Assembly: GCA_026400755.1 (NCBI GenBank)
Contig: JAPLOM010000011.1
Span: 135,501 to 199,500 of the forward strand
Length of the DNA: 64,000 nt
Source: Alphaproteobacteria bacterium
GTDB lineage: Bacteria > Pseudomonadota > Alphaproteobacteria > CADEGL01
Direction: 5' to 3'
In this document: positions 3,001-41,940 of the stretch, piece by piece
How the letters are laid out: each line of letters opens with the position of its first letter
How positions within the stretch are numbered: the stretch's first letter is position 1
The notes under the pieces: model-generated
The model's input: the letters and a program-made list of their open reading frames with translations, nothing else
The model's database searches: none
Told to the model about the DNA's origin: nothing
Made by a program: the position numbers and the translations under genes

Positions 3001-3125
3001 GGCCGCGACCCTTGGCCTTTCTGGAACCAGATCGATGAAAGCGGTCTTCCCCATATGAAGCACGGCACAGGCCTTGATTTTGTTTGGGAGGCGTAGGCTG
3101 TGGATCGTGCAAGTGGAGAGGCAAC

Positions 3126-3773
3126 ATGACCGAGGCGTTGACGATCTGGACATTCGATTGGGTGCCCGAAGGCACGCCCGGTCCCCGCGGTTATGTTCGA
3201 GACTTGAGACTGCGCTGGGCATGCGAAGAAGCGGGCTTGGACTACAAAGTCCGGTCTGTTCCGTTCAAGAACCGCGGAGCGGAGCACTTCGCGCGTCAGC
3301 CTTTCGGCCAAGTGCCTTTCCTGGAAGACAGAGGCATCACCGTGTTCGAAAGCGGCGCTTGTCTTCTGCATCTCGCGCGAAAAAGTGAAAAGCTGATGCC
3401 CCACGATCCCGAGGGCGAGGCAGAGACGCTGGAATGGACGATTGCCGCGCTTAATTCCATCGAGATGGTCACGGTGCCTTGGTGGTTCATCGGCCTGTCC
3501 AATAACACGAACAACCCGCTCGAAAGCTGGATGCTGCAGCGCTTGAAACACCTGGAAGCTGTGTTGGCGCAGCGTGAGTGGCTTGCCGCCGGACAGTTTA
3601 CCGTTGCCGATCTCCTGATGGCAGACGTGCTTCGGATCCCGAAGGTCAGGGCTGCCGGTGATTTTCCAGCAATACGATCTTACGTCGATCGAGTCTGCGC
3701 GCGCCCTGCTTTCAAACGAGCCTACGACGGCCAGATGGCGCATTTCGCTAAGGGCGATAAGCTCAGCCGGTAA
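3126..3773 (+). CDS. glutathione S-transferase
   Basis: The ORF track gives 3084-3773. An internal ATG at 3126 (MTEALTIWTF...) gives the typical roughly 215-aa GST. The thioredoxin-like N-domain and helical C-domain pattern are present. Confidence 0.8.
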   Translation: MTEALTIWTFDWVPEGTPGPRGYVRDLRLRWACEEAGLDYKVRSVPFKNRGAEHFARQPFGQVPFLEDRGITVFESGACLLHLARKSEKLMPHDPEGEAETLEWTIAALNSIEMVTVPWWFIGLSNNTNNPLESWMLQRLKHLEAVLAQREWLAAGQFTVADLLMADVLRIPKVRAAGDFPAIRSYVDRVCARPAFKRAYDGQMAHFAKGDKLSR

Positions 3774-3816
3774 CCGGGTAGAATTCGGCGCGCAGAAAGA
3801 GTAGCCACCACTTCCG

Positions 3817-4914
3817 ATGTCCCGCCTTGTCCTCGTTTCCCTCGGCACGTTGAACGGTACGGTCCTGGAGGCCGTGGCGCGCAGCGGCGTGTTCGACGAG
3901 ATCCTGGTCGCAAGCCGCAACGCCGATTACGGGCGGCGCAAGGTGAACACGGCGCGCGTGGGCGCGGCCGTGGTGGGCAAGTTTCCCCGCATCGAATTCG
4001 TGCCCTTCGACCTGAACGGCGCCAACGCAGGCGAAGCGTTGAAGCGCATGGAGGCAGACGTGGTGGTGACCGCGCCGAGCCTTCTGCCCTGGTGGGCGGT
4101 CGACAAGCTGGGCGGCGAGAAGGGTGAGGTGGCGCGCACGGCGCCCTTCGCCACGTTCGTGGCCTGTCACGTGGCGCCCATGCTGGCCTTCCGCCGCGCG
4201 TGGGTGCAGGCGCGGCCCCACGCGGCGTGGATCAACCTGTCCTATCCCGACGGGGTGAACGCGGTGCTGACGCGCACGGGGGCCGGCCCCTTGTGCGGCA
4301 TCGGCAACGTGGAGGAGGCCGTGCCCAAGGCGCGCTTCGCCGTGGCCGATGCGCTGGGCGCGCCGCCGGAAGAGGTCGAGGTGCGCCTGGTCGCGCCCCA
4401 CGCGCTCGAATATTTCCTCTATGCCGCCGAAACGGCGAAGGAATTGCCGCCGTGCCTGGTGAAGGCGACGTGGCGCGGGCGCGACGTCTCGGCCGAAGCA
4501 CGCGCCGGTCTCTTCACCCCCATGCCGATCCTCTACGACATGGATTTCAACCTGTTGACCCAGGCCTCGGCCGTGCGGTTTCTGACCACCTTCATGGCGA
4601 AGGAAAACTCGCTGGTTCATGTGCCGGGGCCGGACGGACGCGTCGGCGGCTATCCCATGCAGGCGGGCAACCGTCGCATCGCCCTCGACCTTCCGCCCGA
4701 ATGGAGCGAAGCCGAGGCCATCGCCATGAACGAGAAGGCCCTGCATTGGGACGGCGTGGCCGGCATCACGAGCGACGGCATCATCCAGTTCACCGACAAG
4801 ACCGCCACCGCCCTGCGCACGCTTCTCGGCCGCAGCGTCTATCAGCTTTCGCCGCACGAGGCGTCGTCGATGGCGAACGAATTGCTGGCCGCGGTGGGCG
4901 CGAAGAAGTCCTAG
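3817..4914 (+). CDS. conserved hypothetical protein, possibly a saccharopine-dehydrogenase-like Rossmann fold
   Basis: 365-aa high-GC ORF with coding-like composition. The product call rests only on a weak resemblance at the N-terminus. Confidence 0.45.
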   Translation: MSRLVLVSLGTLNGTVLEAVARSGVFDEILVASRNADYGRRKVNTARVGAAVVGKFPRIEFVPFDLNGANAGEALKRMEADVVVTAPSLLPWWAVDKLGGEKGEVARTAPFATFVACHVAPMLAFRRAWVQARPHAAWINLSYPDGVNAVLTRTGAGPLCGIGNVEEAVPKARFAVADALGAPPEEVEVRLVAPHALEYFLYAAETAKELPPCLVKATWRGRDVSAEARAGLFTPMPILYDMDFNLLTQASAVRFLTTFMAKENSLVHVPGPDGRVGGYPMQAGNRRIALDLPPEWSEAEAIAMNEKALHWDGVAGITSDGIIQFTDKTATALRTLLGRSVYQLSPHEASSMANELLAAVGAKKS

Positions 4915-4987
4915 CGTTTATCCCGATATTAGGCAGCAAGCATACCAAGCAACCCCTCGGTATATGTGTGATCGGGCGATCGCGCCC

Positions 4988-5623
4988 TTATAGTCGTTCT
5001 TCTTGTTCAGAATTTGGTTGCTCCGGGAGCTCGGGAATTGCGCTTTGACCTCCCCTAGGATCAGGCCTGATAAGGCGTGACATGCGCCTCGCGGGCTTTA
5101 TATGGCCATCACGCAATAACGCCGCCATGAGCCGCAGAAAACGAACGTGTCCTCGGTATTGGATGGCCCAATTTTCATTGGTTATAGCCGGGGTCGTGAT
5201 CCTGAGCTTCTTCAAGGTTTCGTAAAGCCCAACAATCGCCGGAACACAACGTTCGTAATCAGGCCCGCGAAGAGATCGCAGACCAGTTTCGATCAGCGTG
5301 GCGAGATGTACGCAGTCAGCACCGACTTTCTGGTGCCCTTTCTCGGCTCGCCCATCGATTCGCCTAAGAATGGCGTCCAGCCAAACCCCCGCCACTAGCG
5401 CGAGAACGGCCGTTGAAATCATCAGCGCCGAGGTGCTGAGCGCGGCGCTCAGGAAAGGGCTTGGGCTTGTCGCACTTTCTTGTGCAGTTGGCTGAAGAAG
5501 ATCGAGAAAAAGGACATCCCAACCTTGGGACTCCGCGACCTTCTCAACGTTGAGATAAAAGACTGGGAGGAAAAACAACCCTAGTGCCGATAGCCCCAGC
5601 CGCACGCTTGGCGATAGCTGCAT
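4988..5623 (-). CDS. hypothetical protein with two N-terminal TM helices, lying in a lower-GC islet
   Basis: 211-aa ORF. Two hydrophobic helices (LGLSALGLFFLPVFYL and ALMISTAVLALVAGVWLDAIL) precede a charged soluble region. It sits 46 bp downstream of oxyR on the same strand. Local GC is roughly 50-55 % against about 67 % in the flanks. No family was recognised. Confidence 0.3.
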   Translation of the reverse strand: MQLSPSVRLGLSALGLFFLPVFYLNVEKVAESQGWDVLFLDLLQPTAQESATSPSPFLSAALSTSALMISTAVLALVAGVWLDAILRRIDGRAEKGHQKVGADCVHLATLIETGLRSLRGPDYERCVPAIVGLYETLKKLRITTPAITNENWAIQYRGHVRFLRLMAALLRDGHIKPARRMSRLIRPDPRGGQSAIPELPEQPNSEQEERL

Positions 5624-24947: not shown

Positions 24948-25762
24948 CCAACCCGCCGCTGGCGTTCATGGTGGAGCTGTATGATGGCGGCCGCCGTCTC
25001 CTCGATCGAGCGGCGCGTCACATCGATGACCGGCCAACCATGCTCGGCACACAAGCGGCGCGCGGCCTCGACTTCGGCTTTCACGGCATCGAAGTCGACA
25101 TACTCCGTCTCGGCGTCGTGATCGATCATGCGCAGCCGGTTGCGCCGGATGGCGACCAGACGCTGCGGATCGTTGGTCAGGCCGACGATCAGGGGACGAT
25201 CGGCCTTCAGAAGCTCTTCAGGTGTTGGGAAGCCTGGCACCAGCGGGATATTGGCGGCCTTGATCCCGCGATTGGCCAGATAGATGCAAGTCGGCGTTTT
25301 CGAAGTGCGCGACACGCCGACCAGAACCACATCGGCCTGATTCAAATCGTGGGTCGATTGACCGTCATCGTGGGTCAGAACGAAGTTCATGGCCTCGATG
25401 CGGTGGAAGTATTCGGAGTCGAGCGCGTGCTGGCGCCCCGGCCGGGCGCCGCCCTGCATGCCGAAATGCATAGCCAGCGTGCGGATCACGGGGTCCAGGA
25501 CAGCGATACACGGAACGTCGAGGCGTTCGCAGGCCGCGCGCAGGCGCGTGCGCAGGTGATCGTTCAGGACGGTGAACATGACGATGCCGGGCTCGGCCTC
25601 GATCGCGCCCAACACCTTGTCGAGCTGGCGTTCGGTGCGCACCATCGACCAGAGATGCTCGATCGTCCGCACCTCCTCGAACTGAACCAGGGCGGCGCGC
25701 GCGACGTTGCCGACCGTCTCGCCGGTCGAGTCGGAAACCAAATGAAGATGGAAGGTTTTCAT
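24944..25762 (-). CDS. DUF299 / pyruvate-phosphate dikinase regulatory protein-like kinase-phosphorylase
   Basis: MKTFHLHLVSDSTGETV...VGVSRTSKTP (P-loop); 272 aa. It is the homologue class of Caulobacter CC0001 / Rickettsia RP001, which flank Cori. Confidence 0.85.
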   Translation of the reverse strand: MKTFHLHLVSDSTGETVGNVARAALVQFEEVRTIEHLWSMVRTERQLDKVLGAIEAEPGIVMFTVLNDHLRTRLRAACERLDVPCIAVLDPVIRTLAMHFGMQGGARPGRQHALDSEYFHRIEAMNFVLTHDDGQSTHDLNQADVVLVGVSRTSKTPTCIYLANRGIKAANIPLVPGFPTPEELLKADRPLIVGLTNDPQRLVAIRRNRLRMIDHDAETEYVDFDAVKAEVEAARRLCAEHGWPVIDVTRRSIEETAAAIIQLHHERQRRVG

Positions 25763-26138
25763 CCCGGCCCCCCTGTTGGCCGTTTCGCGATGTCGGGGAT
25801 AAGTAACCGGTTATCCTCAGGCACCCGCAATCGCCCCCCGCTGGCCCGGATTCGCTCCGAAAGGAATCGGCCTCTGGACAAATACATAGCATGGTCCCGC
25901 AAGACGCGTATAAACTGGCTTGCGGGAAAGTTTTTCACGGAATTCGCGTTCCAAGGCGATGCTAGGTAAGGGTTTGCAGACAGGCTTTCTGGATTCGATA
26001 CCGGTCATCCTGGTTTGAGTCCGATGTTTTAGCTGGCACTGCATTTTCTGTGGGCGAATCCAGGTGGCAGAATAATCACCGTTATCCCAGAGACAACTAC
26101 TGCCACTACCTAAGAATCTTAAATACTCTTTAAGGAAG
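25763..26138. other. probable chromosomal replication origin (Cori/oriC) in the DUF299-hemE divergent gap
   Basis: A 376-bp non-coding gap with the lowest GC in the window. DnaA-box-like 9-mers are at about 25811-25819 (TTATCCTCA, 8/9), 25794-25802 (inverted, 7/9) and 26082-26090 (TTATCCCAG, 7/9). An AT-rich stretch at 26105-26135 holds a TTAA-N7-TTAA motif at 26119-26133. Synteny matches Caulobacter and Rickettsia Cori (hemE / DUF299). Confidence 0.6.
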
Positions 26139-30235: not shown

Positions 30236-31210
30236 TCATGGAATGAAGACCGTGGAGCCCGTTGTCTTGCGCGCTTCCAGGTCGCGATGCGCCTGGGCGG
30301 CGTCTTTGAGCGGATAGGTCTGGTTGACCGCGATCTTCACCGCGCCAGAGGTGACCACATCGAACAGGGCCTTGGCGCTTTCCTCCAGATCGGCGCGCGT
30401 CGCGGTATAGGCTACGAGCGAAGGCCGAGTCAGATAGAGCGAGCCCTTGGCGCCCAAGATGGCCGGTGAGAACGAGGCCACGGGACCGGAGGCGTTGCCA
30501 AAACTGACCATAAGCCCGCGGGGACGCAGGCAGTCCAACGACCCTTCGAACGTGTCCTTGCCGATGGAATCGTAAACCACGGGCACGCCGGCGCCGCCGG
30601 TAATCTCTCTCACCTGCTTGGCGAAATCTTCGCGCGTGTAGACAATCGTGTGATCGCAGCCATGGGCCTTGGCCAACTTGGCCTTCTCGTCGGAGCCGAC
30701 CGTGCCGATGACGGTTGCGCCGAGATGCTTGGCCCATTGGCAGAAGATCAGGCCAATCCCGCCGGCCGCGGCATGGATCACGACTGTGTCGCCGCGTTTG
30801 ACCGGATAGGTGCGCCGGACCAAGTACTCGACCGTCATGCCTTGCAGCATCATGGCGGCGGCTTGCTGGTCCGTGATCGCGTCGGGCACGCGCACGACGC
30901 GCTCTGCCGCGATCAGGCGTGCCTCCGCATAGGCGCCGACAGGAGCCGAGGCATAAGCGACGCGGTCGCCGGGCTTGAGGCTGGTGACGCCCGGGCCGAC
31001 GGCCTCCACGGTTCCCGCCCCTTCCATACCGATCACGCTTGGATAGGTCAGCGGGTAAAGACCGGTGCGGTGATAGACGTCGATGTAGTTAAGGCCGACC
31101 GCGCCGTGGCGCACGAGGATCTGGCCGGCGCCCGGCTTGTCGAGCGCGACCTCTTCCCAGGTCAGCGCTTCTGGCCCGCCGGCTTTGTGGATTCGGATCG
31201 CCTTTACCAT
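30236..31210 (-). CDS. qor: NADPH:quinone oxidoreductase (zinc-free MDR family)
   Basis: An internal ATG (MVKAIRIHKAGGPEAL...) and the nucleotide-binding motif AAAGGIG. 324 aa. Confidence 0.8.
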   Translation of the reverse strand: MVKAIRIHKAGGPEALTWEEVALDKPGAGQILVRHGAVGLNYIDVYHRTGLYPLTYPSVIGMEGAGTVEAVGPGVTSLKPGDRVAYASAPVGAYAEARLIAAERVVRVPDAITDQQAAAMMLQGMTVEYLVRRTYPVKRGDTVVIHAAAGGIGLIFCQWAKHLGATVIGTVGSDEKAKLAKAHGCDHTIVYTREDFAKQVREITGGAGVPVVYDSIGKDTFEGSLDCLRPRGLMVSFGNASGPVASFSPAILGAKGSLYLTRPSLVAYTATRADLEESAKALFDVVTSGAVKIAVNQTYPLKDAAQAHRDLEARKTTGSTVFIP

Positions 31211-31278
31211 CGTGCTTTCCCTTTCGTGGCGGACACGGTCACCGACGTCATCTCGGATGTGGGACCGGGCCGGACAAG

Positions 31279-31974
31279 CTAGGCCAGGTGTTTCCGGAAG
31301 AATTCCGCCGAACGCGTGTTGGCTAGATCGGCCGACGTTTTGTCGTAGTGCTTGCCGCCCGTGCGGGCGAAGGCATGTTCCTGACCCACGTAGGTATGGA
31401 TGGTCATATGGGGATGGCCCTGCAGCGCGGTTTTGATCTGCGCCTGTGCGTCGGGCGGCACGAAGGAATCCTTCTCCGCGATGTGCAGCATGGTCGGTTT
31501 CTTGATGTTTTTGGCCTCGTCCAAATTGTTCTGAATGCCGACGCCGTAAAAACTGACGTCGCAGTCGGTGTCCGAGCGCGCGGCCATCAGATAGACCAGG
31601 CGGCCGCCCAGGCAGTAGCCGACAGTGCCGGCCTTGCCGGTGCAACCCTTGATCCCGCGCAGATGTGCGAGCGAGGCCTTGAGGTCGGAGATGCCCTTGG
31701 CCTCATCGAAGCCTTTGAAGAACTCGAAGGCGCGCGCCCATTCGCCATCCGTCTGGTCGGTCAACTGAACGCCGGGTTCCTGCCGCCAGAAAATGTCCGG
31801 GCACAGCGCGAAATAGCCTTGTGAGGCTAGGCCGTCGGAAATCTGCCGCATCACTTTGTTGACGCCAAAGATCTCCTGGATAACGAGAACGCCCGCGCCC
31901 TTGCCCGATTTGGGTTCCGCCAGATAGGCGGAAAAGCTGCCACCGTCCGCGGCCTTGATCGTGATGTCGGGCAT
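31279..31974 (-). CDS. dienelactone hydrolase family protein
   Basis: An internal ATG (MPDITIKAADGG...). The DLH fold includes a nucleophile elbow region GYCLGG. Confidence 0.8.
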   Translation of the reverse strand: MPDITIKAADGGSFSAYLAEPKSGKGAGVLVIQEIFGVNKVMRQISDGLASQGYFALCPDIFWRQEPGVQLTDQTDGEWARAFEFFKGFDEAKGISDLKASLAHLRGIKGCTGKAGTVGYCLGGRLVYLMAARSDTDCDVSFYGVGIQNNLDEAKNIKKPTMLHIAEKDSFVPPDAQAQIKTALQGHPHMTIHTYVGQEHAFARTGGKHYDKTSADLANTRSAEFFRKHLA

Positions 31975-32052
31975 GATTCGCTCCCTACGTTTGTATCGGC
32001 GGGGGCGAAGGGTAGCCCGCACCCATGACGATTGTCACGCCGCGCGAGCGCG

Positions 32053-32514
32053 TCAGAACGGCAACGACGGGCCGATGATTCCTTCCAGCTCGAGCAAGCG
32101 ACGCTTCGTCTCGACGCCACCCGGTGCGCTGAAGCCGCCCATGCCGCCGCCGGCGGCGAGAATCCGATGGCAAGGAATGATGATGGGAATAGGATTGGCG
32201 CCGCAAGCACCGCCGACCGCGCGAGCGACCCCATTCACGCGCGCCGCGAGATCACCGTAGGTCAACGTGCGGCCATAGGGAATTCGGGTCAGCTCTGCCC
32301 AGACCGCGCGTTCGAAGTCACTGCCCTTGGGTGCCACGGGCAAGTCGAATGTCTGGAGGCGGCCCGCGAAATAATCCGTGAGCTGAGTGCGGGCGGCGTC
32401 GAGCAACGGCGAGGAATCATTCGCACCCTTTCCCCAGCGCAGGCGAACGATCGCGCCGCTTTCCTCGAATGCCGCGAGCAGACCGAGCGGCGAAGGAATC
32501 GTGACCGAGGACAT
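32053..32514 (-). CDS. ogt: methylated-DNA--protein-cysteine methyltransferase
   Basis: An internal ATG (MSSVTIPSPLGLL...) and the active-site PCHRI motif. The start overlaps the upstream gene's stop (ATGA). Confidence 0.85.
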   Translation of the reverse strand: MSSVTIPSPLGLLAAFEESGAIVRLRWGKGANDSSPLLDAARTQLTDYFAGRLQTFDLPVAPKGSDFERAVWAELTRIPYGRTLTYGDLAARVNGVARAVGGACGANPIPIIIPCHRILAAGGGMGGFSAPGGVETKRRLLELEGIIGPSLPF

Positions 32515-34532
32515 CAACGCGCCTGCAGGTTCTCGCGCAATGCCGCCGCATCGGTGATCGGCAACGAACAGACCGGGCCACGGCAGACATAGGCGGCCGC
32601 GTGCCCATCGGCGCGGCCTTTGCCGAAGGCCGGATGGGCGACGGAAAACCCGTCCGTGTTCTCCACCACCTGCACCACCTTGTCCGGCAGCGAAACGTCG
32701 TGGATGGCACGCAACATCGTGCGGACGGACTCCTCGTCGCGCCGGCCGACCAGGATGATCTGTATTCCCTCGCTTAGGAAGGCATGGGCATTGAGGAGCG
32801 TCGACAGGCCAAAGACGTTTCGTTCCAGTTCGCCCGAGACGGCCTGAACCAGAGCCTCGGCGCGCGTGCGATAGGCGCCCTTCCCCGTCAGATAGAATAA
32901 CCGCGCCAGAACACCGACCATGGTGCCGTTGCCAGAAGGCACGGCTTGGTCGTGGACTTGTTTGGTGCGCGTGATCACGTCCTTGGTGTCGTCGGCGGTG
33001 AAGAAATAGGCGCCACCTTTCGCGTCCACATAGTGACGCTCGATGGTGGCCATCCATGTTTCGGCCTGTGCGAGATAGCCGCCCTCACCCGTGGCTTCGA
33101 ACAGCGCTAGGGCGGCGCGCGCCATGTTGGCATGATCATCGAGCGTGGCTGGGTGACGCGCATGGCCGCCGCTCCAGCTGTGACGCAGCCGATCTCCCTC
33201 GCCCATCCGCGTTTGGATGAACATGAACGCCGCACGCGCAGCGTCGAGCCACTCTGGTTGATCGAAGATGGCGCTCGCGTTGGCGAGTGCCGCGATCATC
33301 AAGCCGTTCCAGTCGGCCAAAATCTTGTCGTCGAGGCCTGGCCGTATGCGCGGGGCGCGTGCGTCGAACAAGATCGCACGCGCAGTCGCTAACTGCGTCT
33401 CATACGCTTCGTCGCCCAACGCTGGTTTCAGGCGGCGGTTGAGGATGGTGTAGCCTTCCCAATTGCCGCGCGGCGTTACGTCGTATGCCGCCTTGAATTC
33501 CGTGGCGGCCGCACCGAGCAAGCGGTCGATTTCCGCTTCCGTCCAAACGTAGAACTTTCCCTCCTCGCCTTCGCTATCGGCATCGAGCGAGCTGAAGATG
33601 CCGCCTTCTGAATGCCGCATCTCGCGCAGAACCCATCCTACGGTCTCGGCCACGCGCGTGCGGTAGAGCGGATCGCGTGTCTCCTGCCAGACCACCGTCA
33701 GTAGGTCGATCAGAAGCGCGTTGTCGTAGAGCATTTTCTCGAAGTGCGGCACGAGCCACTCGGCATCGACGGCATAGCGTGCGAAGCCGCCGCCTAGATG
33801 GTCATAGATGCCGCCCTGCGACATGCGATCGAGAGTCAAGGTGACGGCATGTTTGAGCTTTTGGTCACCGGTTTTCAGATAGGCCCGCCAGAGCAACTCG
33901 AATGCCGGTGATTGCGGGAATTTGGGTGCGCCGCCGAAACCGCCCTGCTCTTTGTCGACGGCCTCGACCAGATGTTTCGCGACTTCGACGGGCGCGTTCG
34001 GCACAAGAGCGCCGCCAGGCGCCGGCTGCGATAGTTTTTCGAGCGCACCCTTGAGCGCGAGAACGCTTTGCCGCACCGCTTCCGGCTTCGCGCGATAAGA
34101 CTCGAAGACACGGCGCAGCACATCGGGAAACCCCGCACGGCCATAGCGCGGCTCAGGCGGAAAATATGTGCCGCCCCAAAACGGCTCACCCTTCGGCGTG
34201 AGAAACATGGTGAGTGGCCAGCCGCCATGCTCGCCGAGAAATGAGAGCGCGGCCTGATAGATGACATCGAGATCAGGACGCTCTTCGCGGTCGACCTTGA
34301 TGTTGACGAACAGCTCGTTCATCAGCGCCGCGGTTTTCTCGTCCTCGAAGCTTTCATGGGCCATGACGTGGCACCAGTGGCAGGCCGCGTATCCAACCGA
34401 GAGGAGGATGGGTTTGTTCGCCTCCGCCGCTTCGGCCAGCGCGGCTTCGCTCCAGGGCCGCCAATGGACGGGGTTATCCTGGTGCTGGCGCAGATAGGGG
34501 CTGGTCTCGTGACGGAGGAGGTTTTCTGTCAT
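32514..34532 (-). CDS. thioredoxin-domain protein (DUF255 / YyaL-like, N-acylglucosamine-epimerase-like C-domain)
   Basis: MTENLLRHETSPYLRQH...PILLSVGYAACHWCHVMAHESF (CxxC-type motif). Roughly 672 aa. Confidence 0.8.
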   Translation of the reverse strand: MTENLLRHETSPYLRQHQDNPVHWRPWSEAALAEAAEANKPILLSVGYAACHWCHVMAHESFEDEKTAALMNELFVNIKVDREERPDLDVIYQAALSFLGEHGGWPLTMFLTPKGEPFWGGTYFPPEPRYGRAGFPDVLRRVFESYRAKPEAVRQSVLALKGALEKLSQPAPGGALVPNAPVEVAKHLVEAVDKEQGGFGGAPKFPQSPAFELLWRAYLKTGDQKLKHAVTLTLDRMSQGGIYDHLGGGFARYAVDAEWLVPHFEKMLYDNALLIDLLTVVWQETRDPLYRTRVAETVGWVLREMRHSEGGIFSSLDADSEGEEGKFYVWTEAEIDRLLGAAATEFKAAYDVTPRGNWEGYTILNRRLKPALGDEAYETQLATARAILFDARAPRIRPGLDDKILADWNGLMIAALANASAIFDQPEWLDAARAAFMFIQTRMGEGDRLRHSWSGGHARHPATLDDHANMARAALALFEATGEGGYLAQAETWMATIERHYVDAKGGAYFFTADDTKDVITRTKQVHDQAVPSGNGTMVGVLARLFYLTGKGAYRTRAEALVQAVSGELERNVFGLSTLLNAHAFLSEGIQIILVGRRDEESVRTMLRAIHDVSLPDKVVQVVENTDGFSVAHPAFGKGRADGHAAAYVCRGPVCSLPITDAAALRENLQAR

Positions 34533-34688
34533 GCGGCGTCCGTTCGTGCGGCCGGGTACGGACGTGGTCCTGCACACCGACGGTGGATGAGGTGTCAAAC
34601 GACGGAGGCGCCGTTGCGGCCTCGGTGGGCTTGGCCTAGTTTGGCGCTCGAATCCCCGCAAACATAGGCGCGAATCGGGAGATCGGCC

Positions 34689-34937
34689 ATGAAGGTCCGC
34701 ATCGATATCGATTGCTCCCCGGAAGAGGCGCGCGCCTTCCTCGGCCTGCCTGACGTGAAGCCGATGCAGGACGCGATGATGGCGAAGATGAAGGACGAGA
34801 TGCTGCGCCATCTGTCCGCGATGGATCCGGAGACCATGTTCAAGACATGGTTCCCGACCGGGACCAAAGGGCTTGAGGAATTGCAGCAGCGGTTCTGGAC
34901 GGAATTCTCGAAAGGCTTTGGGAGCGGCAAGACGTGA
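34689..34937 (+). CDS. small conserved hypothetical protein (82 aa)
   Basis: High-GC coding ORF with a 4-bp ATGA overlap to the downstream ferredoxin gene. Confidence 0.5.
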   Translation: MKVRIDIDCSPEEARAFLGLPDVKPMQDAMMAKMKDEMLRHLSAMDPETMFKTWFPTGTKGLEELQQRFWTEFSKGFGSGKT

Positions 34938-35299
34938 GCGAAGAGAACAATACGGATGACCCGGCGCCCTATTATCGCCGGCATGTTTTCATGTGCACCA
35001 ATCACCGCCCCGACGGCGATCCCCGTGGCTGCTGCGCGGCCAAGGACGCCGAGAAGCTGCGTAGTTATCTGAAGAACCAAGCCAAGAAGTTCGGTCTGGA
35101 CGACATGCGCATCAATGGCGCGGGTTGCCTCGACCGGTGCGAGCTGGGACCGGCCATGGTGATCTATCCGGAAGGCGTCTGGTACACCTACAAGGACAGG
35201 GCCGACCTGGACGAAATCCTGACGGTTCACCTGAAGGACGGCAAACGCGTCACGCGCTTGCAGCTTCGTCCGGGCGACGACCCGCCGAAGGCGAAATAG
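34934..35299 (+). CDS. thioredoxin-like [2Fe-2S] ferredoxin
   Basis: Four Cys in a characteristic arrangement: CTNHRPDGDPRGCCAA...GCLDRC. 121 aa. Confidence 0.75.
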   Translation: MSEENNTDDPAPYYRRHVFMCTNHRPDGDPRGCCAAKDAEKLRSYLKNQAKKFGLDDMRINGAGCLDRCELGPAMVIYPEGVWYTYKDRADLDEILTVHLKDGKRVTRLQLRPGDDPPKAK

Positions 35300-35313
35300 A
35301 TATCTAAATCATA

Positions 35314-36648
35314 GTGTTGCGCGATAGCGACACGATCTTTGCGCTCTCCAGCGGCGCCGGCAAGGCTGGCATCGCGGTGATCCGCGTCTCGGGTCCTGGC
35401 GCCGCCAAGGCCCTTCAACTCCTGACGGGAAAGCCCCTGCCGCCCGAACGTCGCGCGGCCCTGTGCGCCCTCTCCGATGCCCAGGGCGAGCTGATCGACC
35501 GCGCCTTGGTCCTCTGGTTTCCCGGCCCGCGCAGCGAAACCGGCGAAGACGTCGCGGAGTTCCATGTCCATGGCGGCCGCGCGGTGGTCGCAGCCGTCTT
35601 CGAGGCGCTGAGCCGGCAGGATCGCACCCGTCTGGCGGAGGCGGGTGAGTTTGCCCGCCGCGCCTTCCAGAACGGCAAGCTCGATCTGACTGCGGTCGAG
35701 GGTCTGGCCGATCTGGTGGATGCCGAGACCGCGGTTCAGCGCCGCCTGGCGCTTCGGCAGATGGATGGCGCGCTCGCGCATCTCTACGAGGGTTGGCGCG
35801 CCCGCCTGTTGCGCGCCTCGGCCCTGATCGAAGCCCATATCGACTTTTCCGAGGATGGGGTGGGTGATTCGGTCATCGCCGAATCCCTGTCCCAACTGTC
35901 CCAACTCGCGCAAGATTTGCGGACCCATTTGACGGAAGGGCGCCGCGGAGAGGCCGTCCGGGACGGCATCGAAGTCGTAATCCTGGGCGCGCCGAACGTG
36001 GGGAAATCGAGCCTTATCAATGCTCTGTCCCGGCGTGATACAGCCATCGTCACGCCTATCCCGGGCACAACGCGTGATGTCATCGAGGTCCGGCTGGATC
36101 TGGACGGCTGGCCGGTCCTGCTGGCGGATACGGCGGGCCTGCGTGAGTCGGATGATCCGATTGAAAAAGAGGGAATTCGCCGGGCCCAGGCTCGGGCGGT
36201 GCGTGCCATGCTCAAGCTGGTCGTTTTCGATGCGACGGCCCTGCCCGCTCTCGACCCAGCCTCCCGGCGCTTGTTGGATGACCGCAGCTTGGCCCTTTTC
36301 AACAAGACCGATCTGTCCGGAAACGCACCGTTGGAGGTCGATGGGGCGCCGGCCCTCTCCGTCTCAGCTCTATGTGAGATCGGCTTGAGCGAGGTCCGAT
36401 CTTGGCTTTCGACACGGCTGGCTGGATGCGTCGGCGCGCTGGACGCCCCTGTCTTTACGCGCGAGCGGCACCGTCAGGCGTTGGAGGGCTGCCTCCAGGC
36501 CGTCGAGGCCTGCGCTGCTGGTGAGTCCCCAGAACTTTTAGCCGAGAATTGCCGCCACGCTGCCTTCGCATTGGGCCGAATCACGGGATCCATCGGGGTC
36601 GAGGATCTGTTGGACGTGATTTTCAAGGACTTTTGTATCGGCAAATAA
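35314..36648 (+). CDS. mnmE: tRNA modification GTPase MnmE
   Basis: 444 aa with an N-terminal THF-binding domain, G-domain motifs GAPNVGKSSL and DTAGLRE, and the C-terminal tail FCIGK. Confidence 0.95.
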   Translation: MLRDSDTIFALSSGAGKAGIAVIRVSGPGAAKALQLLTGKPLPPERRAALCALSDAQGELIDRALVLWFPGPRSETGEDVAEFHVHGGRAVVAAVFEALSRQDRTRLAEAGEFARRAFQNGKLDLTAVEGLADLVDAETAVQRRLALRQMDGALAHLYEGWRARLLRASALIEAHIDFSEDGVGDSVIAESLSQLSQLAQDLRTHLTEGRRGEAVRDGIEVVILGAPNVGKSSLINALSRRDTAIVTPIPGTTRDVIEVRLDLDGWPVLLADTAGLRESDDPIEKEGIRRAQARAVRAMLKLVVFDATALPALDPASRRLLDDRSLALFNKTDLSGNAPLEVDGAPALSVSALCEIGLSEVRSWLSTRLAGCVGALDAPVFTRERHRQALEGCLQAVEACAAGESPELLAENCRHAAFALGRITGSIGVEDLLDVIFKDFCIGK

Positions 36649-36664
36649 TGTTTCACGTGAAACA
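36649..36664. promoter_or_regulatory. parS centromere-like site 1 (perfect TGTTTCACGTGAAACA)
   Basis: The exact 16-bp parS consensus palindrome lies immediately after the mnmE stop. The extended 18-bp palindrome ATGTTTCACGTGAAACAT spans 36648-36665. Confidence 0.8.
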
Positions 36665-36678
36665 TTAGCCTTTCCTCA

Positions 36679-36694
36679 TGTTTCACGTGAAACA
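36679..36694. promoter_or_regulatory. parS centromere-like site 2 (perfect TGTTTCACGTGAAACA)
   Basis: Second exact copy, 30 bp downstream of site 1, also inside an 18-bp palindrome ATGTTTCACGTGAAACAT. Confidence 0.8.
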
Positions 36695-36743
36695 TTGCGT
36701 CCAGTTGCTTTACAGATTCCAGCCCCTGCCGTAAATTTAAGCC

Positions 36744-38615
36744 ATGCGAAATTACGACGTGATCGTTGTCGGCGGTGGACATGCCGGCTGCGAGGCAGCC
36801 GCCGCCTCTGCGCGGTTCGGCGCGCGCACCGCATTGATCACCCATGACGCTGAAAAGATTGGAGAAATGTCTTGTAATCCCGCGATTGGCGGGTTGGCGA
36901 AGGGGCAACTCGTCCGCGAGATTGACGCGCTAGATGGCCTGATGGGCCAAGCCATCGATCAGGCCGGCATCCAGTTCCGCATGTTGAACCAAAGCAAGGG
37001 CCTCGCCGTCCGAGGCCCCCGGGCGCAGGCGGATCGAAAGCTCTATAAAGCCGCGATTCAAACCTTGCTCGCTGGGCAACCCGGTCTAGAGGTCATCGAA
37101 GGTGCAGTAGAAGACTTGCTGGTCTCCGATGGCCGCGTTGTTGGCGTGGTTCTGGGCGATGGGCGGGAAATTGGCGCCCCCGGGGTCGTCTTGACCACCG
37201 GCACGTTCCTGAATGGGCTCATCCACATTGGATCGGAAAAAATTCCTTCCGGCCGTATGGACGAAGCCCCGAGCCGCGGCCTGTCCCTGACCCTTAACCG
37301 CCATGGCTTTCCGCTCGGCCGCCTTAAGACTGGCACCCCCGCCCGCCTGGACGGTCGCACCATCGCCTGGAGCGGGTTGGTCGAGCAACCTGGGGATCAA
37401 CCGCCGCGGCCGTTCTCCTTCCTGACTGACAGTATCAAGATACCGCAGATTTCTTGTTATATCACGGAGACGACGAAAGCCACCCATGCGTTGATTCGGG
37501 CTAATTTGGGCGATTCCCCCCTATTTTCGGGCCAAATCGAGGGAAAAGGACCCCGTTACTGCCCTTCCATCGAAGACAAGGTGGTGCGCTTTCCGGACCG
37601 GCAAAATCATCAAATCTTCCTTGAACCTGAAGGGCTTGACGATCATACGGTCTATCCGAATGGGATCTCCACGTCGCTGCCGGCGCGGGTCCAATACGAG
37701 TTGATTCGCACCATTCCAGGCCTTGAATCGGCCGCTATGCTGCGCCCGGGCTACGCCATCGAGTATGATTTCGTGGATCCCCGCGCCCTTCAGCCCAGCC
37801 TGGAAACCCGCCTTCTGCCCGGGCTCTATCTAGCGGGTCAGATCAATGGCACCACCGGCTATGAAGAAGCCGGGGCGCAGGGCTTGATTGCTGGATTGAA
37901 TGCGGCCCGTGCCGCCGGTCAGGCCGCGCCCGTGATCTTCGACCGCGCCGACGGCTATTTGGGCGTGATGGTCGATGACTTGGTAACCCATGGCACTGCC
38001 GAACCCTACCGGATGTTCACCTCAAGGGCGGAATACCGTCTCCATTTGCGATCGGACAATGCGGATCGCCGTCTGACTCCCAAGGGCATTCAGGCTGGCT
38101 GCGTGGACGCCCGCCGACGCGCGTCATGGGCCGCCAAGGAAGATGCTCTGATCCGTGGTTTTGCGTTGGCGGAATCCCTGACGGCAACTCCGAACGAGTT
38201 GGCCCGTCAGGGCATCATGGTTAACCAGGACGGACAGCGACGTTCGCTAAAAGACCTGCTGGGTTATCCGGACATGGCGCGCTCGCGCGTGGCAGCGATA
38301 TGGCCTCAGCTCGCCGGCCTCCAAGAAGACGTGGTCGAGCAGATTCAAATCGAGGCGTCCTACGCTGGATATCTGAAGCGTCAGGAGGAAGACATCATCG
38401 CCTTCCGGAAAGACGAGTCACTCCATCTGCCCGGCGATCTGGACTATGCCAAGGTGGGCTCCTTGTCTGCCGAAGTTCGGGAAAAGCTGACGGAAGTTAA
38501 GCCCGCCACGCTGGGCCAGGCATCTCGTATCTCTGGCCTGACCCCGGCTGCGCTGGTTGCGCTCATGCGGCATGTAAAAAGGGACGGCGCCGGCCAGGCT
38601 CCTCTGGGCACTTGA
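36744..38615 (+). CDS. mnmG: tRNA uridine 5-carboxymethylaminomethyl modification enzyme MnmG (GidA)
   Basis: [19 protein letters not shown]... (FAD-binding); 623 aa. Confidence 0.95.
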
Positions 38616-39235
38616 ATATCGATGATTTTCAAAAGGCTACGGGCGTTTCACGTGAAACTCGGGATCGGCTCTCGCATTATGCGGAACTTCTCCTCCGTTG
38701 GAACCACGCCATCAACCTGGTTGCCAACGGCAGCCTCAAGGATTTGTGGAAGCGCCACTTCCTGGATTCGGCCCAATTACTCCCCCTCATTCCGACAGAA
38801 GGCCCGGACGACGTGGTTGATTTTGGTTCGGGCGCCGGCTTTCCAGGGCTGGTGTTAGCCATCATGGGCGCTGGCCAAGTTCACTTGATCGAACGGGACG
38901 AACGCAAATGCGCCTTCTTACGAGAAGTCGCCCATAAGACGGCGGCGCCCATCACGGTTCACAACATGGACCTTAATAAGGTGACGCCCTGGCCGGTCAA
39001 AGCCGTGACAGCGCGCGCCTTTGCCCCTCTCTCCAACCTCCTGCCCTTTGCCGCGCCGTTCATCGACCAGGGCGCGTTAGGGCTTTTTCTCAAAGGCAAG
39101 ACGCTCGACGATGAATTGACCCAGTCATCGAAAGAGTGGAGAATCCTGGCTGATCGCGTTCCGAGCGCAAGCGATCCGGCGGGCTGCATCCTTCGGGTAC
39201 GGAAGCTAGGACATGATCATTCAAAATCAGACTGA
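38612..39235 (+). CDS. rsmG: 16S rRNA (guanine527-N7)-methyltransferase RsmG (GidB)
   Basis: TTG start overlapping the mnmG stop. Conserved VSRET...LLLRWN motifs and SAM site [13 protein letters not shown]. Confidence 0.85.
38644..38659. promoter_or_regulatory. parS-like site 3 (CGTTTCACGTGAAACT, 14/16) inside the rsmG 5' coding region
   Basis: The 14-bp palindromic core GTTTCACGTGAAAC encodes the conserved GidB VSRET motif. Confidence 0.45.
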
Positions 39236-40043
39236 GTCCTCTATGGTGGTGGAGCCGATCAAGGCGCCGACCCGAATTCTCGCAATCGCCAACCAGAAAG
39301 GCGGCGTGGGAAAGACCACCACGGCGGTCAATCTGGGTACGGCCCTGGCCGCTGTGGGTGAGAAGGTTCTCCTGATCGATCTCGATCCGCAGGGAAACGC
39401 CAGCACGGGTCTAGGCATTGATCGGCGCGATCGCGGGGTCGGGACCTATCACGTCGTGATCGAAGGCGTGGACGCGAAAAGCGCGATCCTTCCGACAACC
39501 ATCCCGAATCTCAGCGTGATTTCATCGTCGGTCGATCTGTCAGGCGCCGAATTGGAACTCGTGGGGCTCCCTAATCGCGAACACCGGTTGCGGGAGGCCA
39601 TTCGCCAGATTTCCGATTCCTACAGCTATATCCTGATCGACTGTCCGCCTGCGTTGGGTCTTCTAACGCTCAACGCCTTTTCGGCAGCCGACGCTGTTCT
39701 GGTCCCGCTGCAATGTGAATTCTATGCGCTTGAAGGCTTAAGCCATTTGGTGCGGACCATCGAGCGCGTCAAACGCGCGTTCAACCCGCGGCTAGAGATA
39801 CAAGGGCTCGTGTTGACCATGTTCGATAAACGCAACAGCTTGTGTGATCTGGTCGCAAGCGATGTGCGGCAACATTTCGGAGACAAGGTCTATCAGACCG
39901 TCATTCCGCGCAATGTGCGTGTCTCTGAAGCGCCCTCCCACGGTAAGCCCGTGCTGCTCTACGACTTCAAATGCGCCGGGTCCCAGGCTTACATCCATTT
40001 GGCCAGCGAGGTCATTCGCCGCGAACAGGCGCTGCGCGCATGA
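39213..40043 (+). CDS. parA: chromosome partitioning ATPase ParA
   Basis: Deviant Walker A is IANQKGGVGKTTTAVNLG. An alternative start is the ATG at about 39243. The ORF start overlaps the rsmG end. Confidence 0.9.
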   Translation: MIIQNQTESSMVVEPIKAPTRILAIANQKGGVGKTTTAVNLGTALAAVGEKVLLIDLDPQGNASTGLGIDRRDRGVGTYHVVIEGVDAKSAILPTTIPNLSVISSSVDLSGAELELVGLPNREHRLREAIRQISDSYSYILIDCPPALGLLTLNAFSAADAVLVPLQCEFYALEGLSHLVRTIERVKRAFNPRLEIQGLVLTMFDKRNSLCDLVASDVRQHFGDKVYQTVIPRNVRVSEAPSHGKPVLLYDFKCAGSQAYIHLASEVIRREQALRA

Positions 40044-40909
40044 ACACCGACGACAAGCGCCGGCACTTGGGTCGAGGCCTTTCGGCTCTCCTGGGTGACG
40101 ATGGGATAGAGACCGCCTCGTCGGACGCATCCCGCCCGCCCCGTTTCGTCGCCCTCGACCTATTGCGTCCCGGCCGGTTCCAACCACGCCGCCGCTTCGT
40201 CCAGGAAGAGATGGATTCGCTCGAAGCATCGATCCGCGAAAAGGGCGTCATCCAACCGATCCTCGTCCGTAAAACGAGCGATCAGGCTTACGAAATCATC
40301 GCCGGAGAACGCCGCTGGCGGGCGGCCCAGCGCGCAGGCCTGCACGAGCTGCCGGTCGTCGTCCGCGAATTGAACGACCGCGAAGCGCTGGAAATTGCCC
40401 TGGTCGAAAACGTCCAACGCGCCGATCTCTCGCCCATCGAGGAGGCGCTCGGCTATCAACGTCTAATGACCGAGTTCGATCATACGCAGGAGCAGCTGTC
40501 GAAAGTGGTCGGCAAAAGCCGCAGCCACGTTGCCAACCTGCTCCGTCTTCTCGACCTTCCGCCTGGCGTCAAAACGCTGCTTGATGGTGGCAAGATCTCA
40601 GCGGGTCATGCGCGCGCGCTTCTAGGCGTCGAAAACGCCGAAACGCTGGCGCGCCAGATCGTGGCGCGGAATCTCAATGTCCGTCAGACCGAGCGACTGA
40701 CCCAGCTCGGAAAAAAGCGGAATGCGAGAAAGCAGACCTTGTCCGCCAAGGACACGGACACGCTGGCGCTCGAACGTGAATTGTCGGCGTTGCTTGGCCT
40801 CAAGGTAACACTGAAGCCGTCCGGCAAAGCGGGCGACCTGTCCATCCGCTACGAAAGCCTCGAGCAGCTCGATGATGTCGTTCAGCGCCTGAGCGCGAAG
40901 CCCGCCTAG
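40040..40909 (+). CDS. parB: chromosome partitioning protein ParB
   Basis: MNTDDKRRHLGRGLSALL..., the ParB box GERRWRAA and an HTH; 289 aa. ATGA overlap with the parA stop. Confidence 0.9.
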   Translation: MNTDDKRRHLGRGLSALLGDDGIETASSDASRPPRFVALDLLRPGRFQPRRRFVQEEMDSLEASIREKGVIQPILVRKTSDQAYEIIAGERRWRAAQRAGLHELPVVVRELNDREALEIALVENVQRADLSPIEEALGYQRLMTEFDHTQEQLSKVVGKSRSHVANLLRLLDLPPGVKTLLDGGKISAGHARALLGVENAETLARQIVARNLNVRQTERLTQLGKKRNARKQTLSAKDTDTLALERELSALLGLKVTLKPSGKAGDLSIRYESLEQLDDVVQRLSAKPA

Positions 40910-41940
40910 TTTCGCCGGGCCGCGCGCCCGGCGGCCTGGGCGATCTCCATCAACGCACGATTGCAAATCGCTTCGGCCGGTAAGCCCGTGGTCTTGCAGC
41001 GCAGCTCCGCTTCCATCAACCGCGAGAATGCACGCAACAAAGCGTCTCGTTTCCATCGGCGAACTTGACCGGAAAATGCCGCGAGCCGCTTGAAAAATAT
41101 GGGTGGGCGCAGCGAGCCAACGGCTTGCTCCGCCGACCCGCCATTGTAAATTTGCGACACGACGACCATCAGCCGCTCGACATGGCGCATGGCGGCCCGG
41201 ACCATCACCACCGGCATCAAATTGTCGGCATAGGCGCGCGCCAACGCGGTGTCGAGCGCGGCCTGGTCACCGCCGAATGCAGCAAAGCACACATCATCGA
41301 TCGAGGCTTCGTTCGCGTCGCCGACCACGGCCTCGACGTCGGCCTCCTCGACCACCGCACCCGGGCCAACATAAGAAACGAGCTTGGCCAATTCGGCGCG
41401 GCTCAACATCCGATCGGCACCGAGACGTTCCAGCAGCATGGCGCGCGCGCCCGGCGAAACGCGAATTTTCTCCGCCTCCAAACTGGCACGAATTACGCCG
41501 TCCAGGGCTTCGCCGTCATCGGTGTAACACGGAACGGCGGCCGCATTCCCCGCGCCTTCGAACAGGCGGCGCAGAGCGGAACGCTTGGGTAAGTCGCCCG
41601 CCTCGACGACGACAAGCGCCTCCATATCGCCGTTATCCAAGAGACGGGTGCATGCTTCAGCACAATCATCGCGCCCGTCGCGCACGCGAACGACGCGCCG
41701 CCCGCCACCGAACGGCATGGCCGAAGCCTCGTCGCGCAAGCGTGCGGGATCGTCCTTGAGATTCGCACCGACGAGTTCGGACAGGCGGAATGGATCGTCC
41801 TTGCCGCCCATTCCGAACTGAACCAGCGACGTCGCGCGCTCGCGCACCAAGCCGAGATCCGGACCATAGACCAGGACGGCCAGCATTTTCGGGTCTGGCT
41901 TGCGAGCGAAAGCGTCGGCGCGTTGGGCGGAAATCTTCAT
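40906..41940 (-). CDS. holA: DNA polymerase III delta subunit
   Basis: 344 aa with an N-terminal delta domain. It converges on parB with a 4-bp overlap. The leuS-lptE-holA order is conserved. Confidence 0.8.
   Translation of the reverse strand: MKISAQRADAFARKPDPKMLAVLVYGPDLGLVRERATSLVQFGMGGKDDPFRLSELVGANLKDDPARLRDEASAMPFGGGRRVVRVRDGRDDCAEACTRLLDNGDMEALVVVEAGDLPKRSALRRLFEGAGNAAAVPCYTDDGEALDGVIRASLEAEKIRVSPGARAMLLERLGADRMLSRAELAKLVSYVGPGAVVEEADVEAVVGDANEASIDDVCFAAFGGDQAALDTALARAYADNLMPVVMVRAAMRHVERLMVVVSQIYNGGSAEQAVGSLRPPIFFKRLAAFSGQVRRWKRDALLRAFSRLMEAELRCKTTGLPAEAICNRALMEIAQAAGRAARRN

Follow-up and report, generated by a model that had tools for sequence, protein, structure and literature searches.

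Where does the partition protein ParB load on the chromosome of an uncultured alphaproteobacterium, and what in the DNA marks the place? The question is raised by one locus in a 64-kb stretch of contig JAPLOM010000011.1 (the window, to whose full length all coordinates refer), in which three short palindromes flank mnmG, upstream of parA and parB. A first-pass annotation had read these palindromes as parS sites that form the ParB loading platform of the chromosome, next to parAB and near the replication origin. This reading held up, and with high probability the three palindromes are parS centromere sites of the chromosome of this organism and hence predicted ParB loading sites. It is carried by a motif that is non-random in its occurrence, by orthodox ParA and ParB partners, by the conservation of both positions across the class and by the correspondence of the spacer pair to sites 3 and 4 of Caulobacter crescentus.

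The coordinates and sequences of the sites were as the first-pass annotation had them, i.e. two copies of TGTTTCACGTGAAACA and one of CGTTTCACGTGAAACT around mnmG, and its placing of each perfect copy inside an 18-bp palindrome (ATGTTTCACGTGAAACAT) within a 95-bp mnmE–mnmG spacer (mnmE stop at 36648, mnmG ATG at 36744) proved exact when re-read from the sequence. Measured against the parS consensus TGTT(T/N)CACGTGAAACA, two copies match at 16/16 and one at 14/16. Three matches with at most 3 mismatches were observed in the window, where 100 shuffles predict 0.06 and in no case yielded three. The scan for more copies of TGTTTCACGTGAAACA that had been suggested earlier, covering the 64-kb window, returned the same three and no others with up to 4 mismatches; there were thus no sites with 3 or 4 mismatches, and the 5-mismatch matches appear random. 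At its 3' end mnmE reads TTT TGT ATC GGC AAA TAA, finishing at 36648, and parS-1 begins at the next base, the first A of the surrounding 18-bp palindrome being the final base of the TAA stop codon. The sequence common to both spacer copies amounts to only 19 nt (ATGTTTCACGTGAAACATT) with unrelated flanks, which argues against a recent duplication of a longer segment; a recent local duplication or mobile element behind the tandem pair was rejected on these grounds.

The partner proteins are those expected of a chromosomal partition system. NCBIfam and Pfam confirmed the identities of mnmE, mnmG, rsmG, parA and parB, and the window ParB comprises the ParB_N, HTH_ParB and ParB_C domains. Its best solved match is the Caulobacter ParB–parS complex 6T1F (E=4e-63), and in this alignment the cytidine triphosphate (CTP) motif GERRWRAA is conserved and intact, and GKSRSHVAN in the recognition helix shows no difference. 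The parA gene, which directly adjoins parB, encodes a standard partition ATPase of the Walker type. Judged from their sequences, both proteins are orthodox. The earlier placing of parA and parB at 39213–40909 was correct as to the identity of the genes, but the start of parB needs adjustment. The alignment to Caulobacter ParB and the overlap of the ATG at 40040 with the parA stop codon as ATGA make this ATG most likely the true start, and the longer open reading frame (ORF) from 39971, which would overlap parA by 73 nt, is probably an artefact. On the 3' side of parB lies a convergent holA, followed by leuS.

Table 1. Predicted parS sites and neighbouring features, in window coordinates
Feature	Coordinates	Strand	Description
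parS-1	36649..36664	.	Perfect 16-bp palindrome TGTTTCACGTGAAACA; abuts the mnmE TAA stop codon
parS-2	36679..36694	.	Perfect 16-bp palindrome; starts 30 bp from the start of parS-1 and lies 49 bp 5' of the mnmG ATG
parS-3	38644..38659	.	CGTTTCACGTGAAACT; 14/16 match with an unaltered 14-bp centre; lies in frame within rsmG codons 12-16 (VSRET)
mnmE (tRNA modification GTPase)	35314..36648	+	Ends in FCIGK motif directly before parS-1; NCBIfam/Pfam
mnmG (gidA)	36744..38615	+	parS sites on both sides; NCBIfam/Pfam
rsmG (gidB)	38612..39235	+	N-terminal extension carries parS-3; NCBIfam/Pfam
parA (Walker-type partition ATPase)	39213..40043	+	Gene caller on identical contigs starts parA at window 39243
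parB (CTP-dependent parS-binding clamp, predicted)	40040..40909	+	Likely ATG 40040; longest ORF from 39971
Putative replication origin	25763..26138	.	376-bp gap between ppsR-like gene and hemE; context, outside the centromere

Conservation was assessed in a comparison set of 80 mnmG loci from species-representative genomes, in each of which parS sites were mapped at up to 2 mismatches together with five genes. The closest MnmG in this set was 68% identical (Dongia, Ferrovibrio and other Rhodospirillales), and no locus returned from the species-representative collection closely represents the lineage of the window. At least one parS was present in the mnmE–mnmG spacer in 33 of the 46 loci in which mnmE lies directly 5' of mnmG, and two were present in 10 of the 46. 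In 20 of the 33, no more than 10 bp separate the mnmE stop codon from the start of the first spacer site, and in the window that site abuts the stop with a gap of 0. Like the site in rsmG codons 12–16 described below, the spacer position is conserved across Alphaproteobacteria, with selection at the DNA level.

Several features of the spacer sites vary among the relatives. The upstream parS tends to adjoin the mnmE stop right behind the conserved FCIGK C-terminus (L023–L027, L034–L046 and others), and in several Rhizobiales (e.g. L025, L027 and L037) the TGA stop codon of mnmE forms the first three bases of parS (TGATTCACGTGAAACA). The spacing of tandem pairs ranges from 38 to 90 bp, for which reason a conserved helical phasing of the two sites was rejected. 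A tandem pair 38 bp apart was also seen 5' of mnmG, with mnmE not adjacent, in a Burkholderiaceae metagenome-assembled genome (L070, 5869–5922), indicating that parS upstream of gidA is not confined to Alphaproteobacteria. Contigs 99.96–100% identical to the window (ENA ERZ27280213, ENA ERZ19567479 and Logan SRR20698643, with identical MnmG) were uninformative for footprinting.

The correspondence to sites bound by ParB can be drawn most closely for C. crescentus, where ParB covers about 10 kb at roughly 8 kb from ori and seven sites were identified by deep sequencing of DNA that had been affinity-purified in vitro (IDAP-seq) (PMC5815017). Sites 3 and 4, originally reported by Toro et al. 2008 and both contained in a 260-bp segment, were the strongest by surface plasmon resonance, chromatin immunoprecipitation with sequencing (ChIP-seq), IDAP-seq and plasmid toxicity, and the 24-mers of the sites are listed in the supplement (PMC5815017). 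Spreading from an isolated Caulobacter parS extends about 2 kb, and clustering of the sites has been proposed to raise the local ParB concentration (PMC5815017).

Two Caulobacter loci (L088 and L090) were retrieved by a protein-database search with the Caulobacter ParB sequence from the 6T1F alignment. In the mnmE–mnmG spacer of L090, the site abutting the mnmE TGA matches C. crescentus site 4 at 21/24 positions, and a second site, 58 bp further, matches site 3 at 23/24 with the flanks included; L088 holds a counterpart of site 3 at 22/24. The distance from hemE to the spacer is about 8 kb in both loci, in accord with the published position (PMC5815017). By position, the tandem pair of the window is therefore the counterpart of the two strong sites, parS-2 corresponding to site 3 and parS-1 to site 4. 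The correspondence to bound Caulobacter sites covers the spacer pair only, as L088 and L090 are without an rsmG site.

The likeness extends beyond the sites themselves. The window shares with Caulobacter the parS consensus and a closely related ParB (6T1F being the best solved match), the gene order in L088 and L090 from rho through DUF6489–mnmE–mnmG–gidB–parA–parB to the opposing holA–lptE–leuS, the arrangement of two sites in the mnmE–mnmG spacer, one of which abuts the mnmE stop codon, and a cluster lying on the hemE side of the origin, about 8 kb away in Caulobacter and 10.5 kb from the putative origin in the window. The two differ in that both sites of the window pair are perfect (16/16) and 30 bp apart, those of L090 being imperfect and 58 bp apart; the window has a third site in rsmG, in place of which L088 and L090 have extra sites in mnmE and elsewhere; and three sites were found in the 64 kb of the window, compared to seven reported for C. 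crescentus. Site 3 of C. crescentus (CGTTTCACGTGAAACA) carries C at position 1, as does parS-3, and the C in parS-3 is thus compatible with strong binding. The idea that site 3 (tcggCGTTTCACGTGAAACAcccc, which reads GVSRETP in one frame) is itself embedded in gidB proved wrong, since it maps to the mnmE–mnmG spacer and gidB of L088 and L090 lacks VSRET.

A second alphaproteobacterial primary-chromosome ParABS is the ParB1/parS1 system of Agrobacterium tumefaciens Ch1 (Ren et al. 2022, PMC8833148), in which several origin-proximal parS lie under a ParB ChIP-seq peak and seven sites spread over about 40 kb (PMC8833148). In the Agrobacterium locus of the comparison set (L037), one parS sits at the mnmE stop codon and another, perfect one at the VSRET codons of rsmG. 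Generic chromosomal parS, with the 16-bp consensus of the Bacillus subtilis Spo0J type, were reportedly surveyed by Livny et al. 2007. The window shares with them the 16-bp palindrome, the clustering near a (here putative) origin and a site beside gidAB–parAB, and nothing fundamental sets it apart; it is an instance from an uncultured lineage in which MnmG reaches no more than 68% identity to that of the related loci returned.

The third site lies within a coding sequence and calls for separate treatment. In frame, parS-3 reads GTT TCA CGT GAA ACT and encodes V12-S-R-E-T16 of rsmG, the start codon of which is a TTG at 38612; its two mismatches, a C at position 1 and a T at position 16, each fall on a third-codon position. 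An in-frame parS at the codons homologous to window rsmG 12–16 was found in 47 of the 65 loci with rsmG 3' of mnmG, almost all of them alphaproteobacterial. The taxa are Rhodospirillales, Sneathiella, Kordiimonas, Micavibrio, Brucella/Ochrobactrum, Bartonella, Bosea, Agrobacterium, Pelagibacteraceae, Rickettsiales and Rhodobacterales, and the loci fall within L002–L056, with L075, L077 and L085–L087 in addition. Three additional metagenome loci displayed the same pattern, and the single near relative returned by the metagenome scan (L084, RsmG 98% identical) has the same 14/16 site. None of the gamma-, beta- and deltaproteobacterial loci of the comparison set had a parS at these codons.

Such recurrence could in principle stem from the protein: parS-3 would then be a by-product of selection on the RsmG peptide VSRET and no functional parS. 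The first-pass annotation had described the third copy as encoding a conserved VSRET motif, and indeed the site keeps to the reading frame and many RsmG proteins of Alphaproteobacteria contain VSRET. The conservation, however, is confined to Alphaproteobacteria (RsmG proteins from other groups lack VSRET), and the codon analysis reverses the causality that the description implies. The codons GTT TCA CGT GAA encode the first four residues in all 46 VSRET peptides, in loci ranging from 28% to 74% GC, and for the peptide VSRE the codon usage of the window gives these four codons a probability of 6e-4. The fifth codon is ACA in 39/46 and the preceding base is T in 39/46, both of which complete the palindrome. 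Moreover, alphaproteobacterial loci without the rsmG parS, including Ferrovibrio, have an unrelated peptide there (L008, L021, L032, L039, L043, L053 and Caulobacter L088 and L090), and VSRET lies outside the Pfam GidB domain, on the N-terminal side of its start at residue 19. Because the codons are identical at 28–74% GC and the peptides are unrelated where the site is absent, the codon pattern argues that the DNA site dictates the VSRET peptide, not the peptide the DNA; an origin as a by-product of protein constraint is very unlikely and was rejected. The frame is open, with an in-frame start upstream, at all 50 embedded rsmG sites, and in the window there is no alternative rsmG start within 12 codons downstream.

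How far back the embedded centromere site reaches is a more finely balanced matter. We give even weight to the proposal that the rsmG parS is an ancient centromere copy, fixed in frame at five codons since an early alphaproteobacterial ancestor, with the DNA dictating VSRET and the codons staying frozen even at 72–74% or 28–29% GC. If true, then together with the parS at the mnmE stop the alphaproteobacterial centromere would have two positional anchors that predate the orders of the class. In Pelagibacteraceae (L044–L051 and L056; 28–29% GC), the rsmG copy was the only good parS (0–1 mismatch) in the roughly 14 kb examined, with weak matches inside mnmG in three loci and none in the mnmE–mnmG spacer. 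The centromere of this family may consist chiefly or entirely of the rsmG copy. The literature searched, which did not extend to Livny et al. 2007 and Toro et al. 2008, where they may already be noted, held no description of an rsmG-embedded parS or of a parS abutting the mnmE stop.

The spacer pair has its own competing explanations. The first-pass annotation had raised the possibility that the palindromes also act as a transcriptional stop between mnmE and mnmG, and taken further this would make them mainly an intrinsic terminator or attenuator. As RNA, each 18-nt palindrome can fold into a hairpin and the two copies can base-pair with one another, and the 116-nt spacer RNA folds at −34.6 kcal/mol (z=−6), but such a low z-score follows trivially from the pairing of two identical palindromes. 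A single hairpin reaches only −5.0 kcal/mol, with 2 G–C pairs and no U-tract, a terminator scan of the spacer predicted none, and there were no Rfam family matches in 34000–41000. In addition, the same 14-bp core occurs inside the rsmG coding sequence, and in the relatives L077, L053 and L022 a parS is retained in a spacer that measures just 10–24 bp, too short to hold both a terminator and a promoter. The suggested stop was accordingly dropped, and we regard a terminator as the main role of the pair as extremely improbable.

A role as operator would be compatible with the centromere, the spacer pair then also letting ParB autoregulate an mnmG–rsmG–parA–parB unit. Promoter-like hexamers are found at 36620–36649, ending at parS-1, and at 36709–36737, just 3' of parS-2, though these matches are weak (9/12 to consensus). 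Chromosomal ParB is reported to repress parS-adjacent promoters in Pseudomonas aeruginosa (PMC5521831) and in Vibrio cholerae (PMC4010829). Relatives, on the other hand, have their parS anywhere from 7 to about 250 bp from the mnmG start, with no fixed geometry conserved, and this additional function appears unlikely, if conceivable.

The claim that the sites lie about 10.5 kb from a putative origin was borne out in part. The gene cluster runs in the order secB, then dnaQ–coaE–aroE–maf–ppsR-like on the minus strand, a gap, and hemE–hemH with rho farther on, and the gap lies 10.5 kb from parS-1. In Caulobacter and other Alphaproteobacteria, the origin is flanked by this cluster of dnaQ–coaE–aroE–maf–ppsR-like and hemE–hemH. 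The distance and the conserved cluster thus stand, whereas the support from DnaA boxes is weak. The gap has an A+T content of 47%, compared to about 36% for the window, and seven GANTC sites occur in and just beside it (25728–26114) where about one is expected. Its DnaA-box content is surprisingly poor, with one 8/9 box (TTATCCTCA at 25811), and there is one TTAA-N7-TTAA (26119). An origin at 25763–26138 is plausible, assigned by synteny.

Taken as a centromere, the locus could work as follows, by analogy with the CTP-dependent clamp mechanism described for studied systems (PMC7053999, PMC8367383 and PMC5815017). CTP-bound ParB dimers, made from a gene 1.4 kb downstream, would bind each 16-bp palindrome through the helix-turn-helix, close as clamps at parS and slide to the flanking DNA, which would clear the site for the next dimer and so make it a reloading gate. 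Two perfect sites 30 bp apart, with a third about 2 kb off, would give one continuous ParB zone of a few kb over the 3' part of mnmE, mnmG, rsmG and parA. ParA would act on this ParB-coated zone to segregate the origin region, and the zone would probably also load SMC.

Several points weigh against this reading and temper its parts to different extents. For this organism, the binding and spreading of ParB and its part in segregation are predicted by analogy with other systems. The Caulobacter comparison was made through L088 and L090, whose ParB proteins are 92–93% identical to the query and which stand in for the C. crescentus genome. Moreover, parS-3 deviates at both outermost positions, and for its T at position 16 the literature consulted offers no validated precedent, so that it may bind less strongly than parS-1 and parS-2. 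The origin rests on synteny, with poor DnaA boxes and a GC skew that is uninformative at the 64-kb scale, and as 64 kb of the replicon were covered, an origin-restricted distribution of parS can be assessed within the window alone.

To a specialist the locus will be unsurprising, since by its sequence it would be a canonical alphaproteobacterial centromere, a correct but ordinary finding that adds nothing new on ParABS itself. Its use lies in locating the centromere and, by synteny, the origin region in an uncultured alphaproteobacterium, which helps annotation and the anchoring of replichores. Mildly new are the class-wide codon-locked parS in rsmG and the stop-abutting site behind mnmE. The former offers a clean class-wide case of a coding sequence constrained by an overlapping centromere site, which is of modest wider interest, and the two-site mnmE–mnmG spacer centromere of Caulobacter has positional counterparts in many other alphaproteobacterial lineages.

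Upstream of mnmE, some further observations concern the neighbouring genes. A 121-aa ORF (34934–35299) between DUF6489 and mnmE has no family match. An ogt-like ORF (32053–33057) and an unassigned 765-aa ORF (32514–34811) that overlaps it are extra material of the window, compared to Caulobacter, between the genes of a shared block. This block, comprising a quinone-reductase-like alcohol dehydrogenase, a dienelactone-hydrolase-like gene and DUF6489 (window 30236–35299), is syntenic with Caulobacter L088 and L090 at 3113–5142, and this synteny holds despite roughly order-level divergence.

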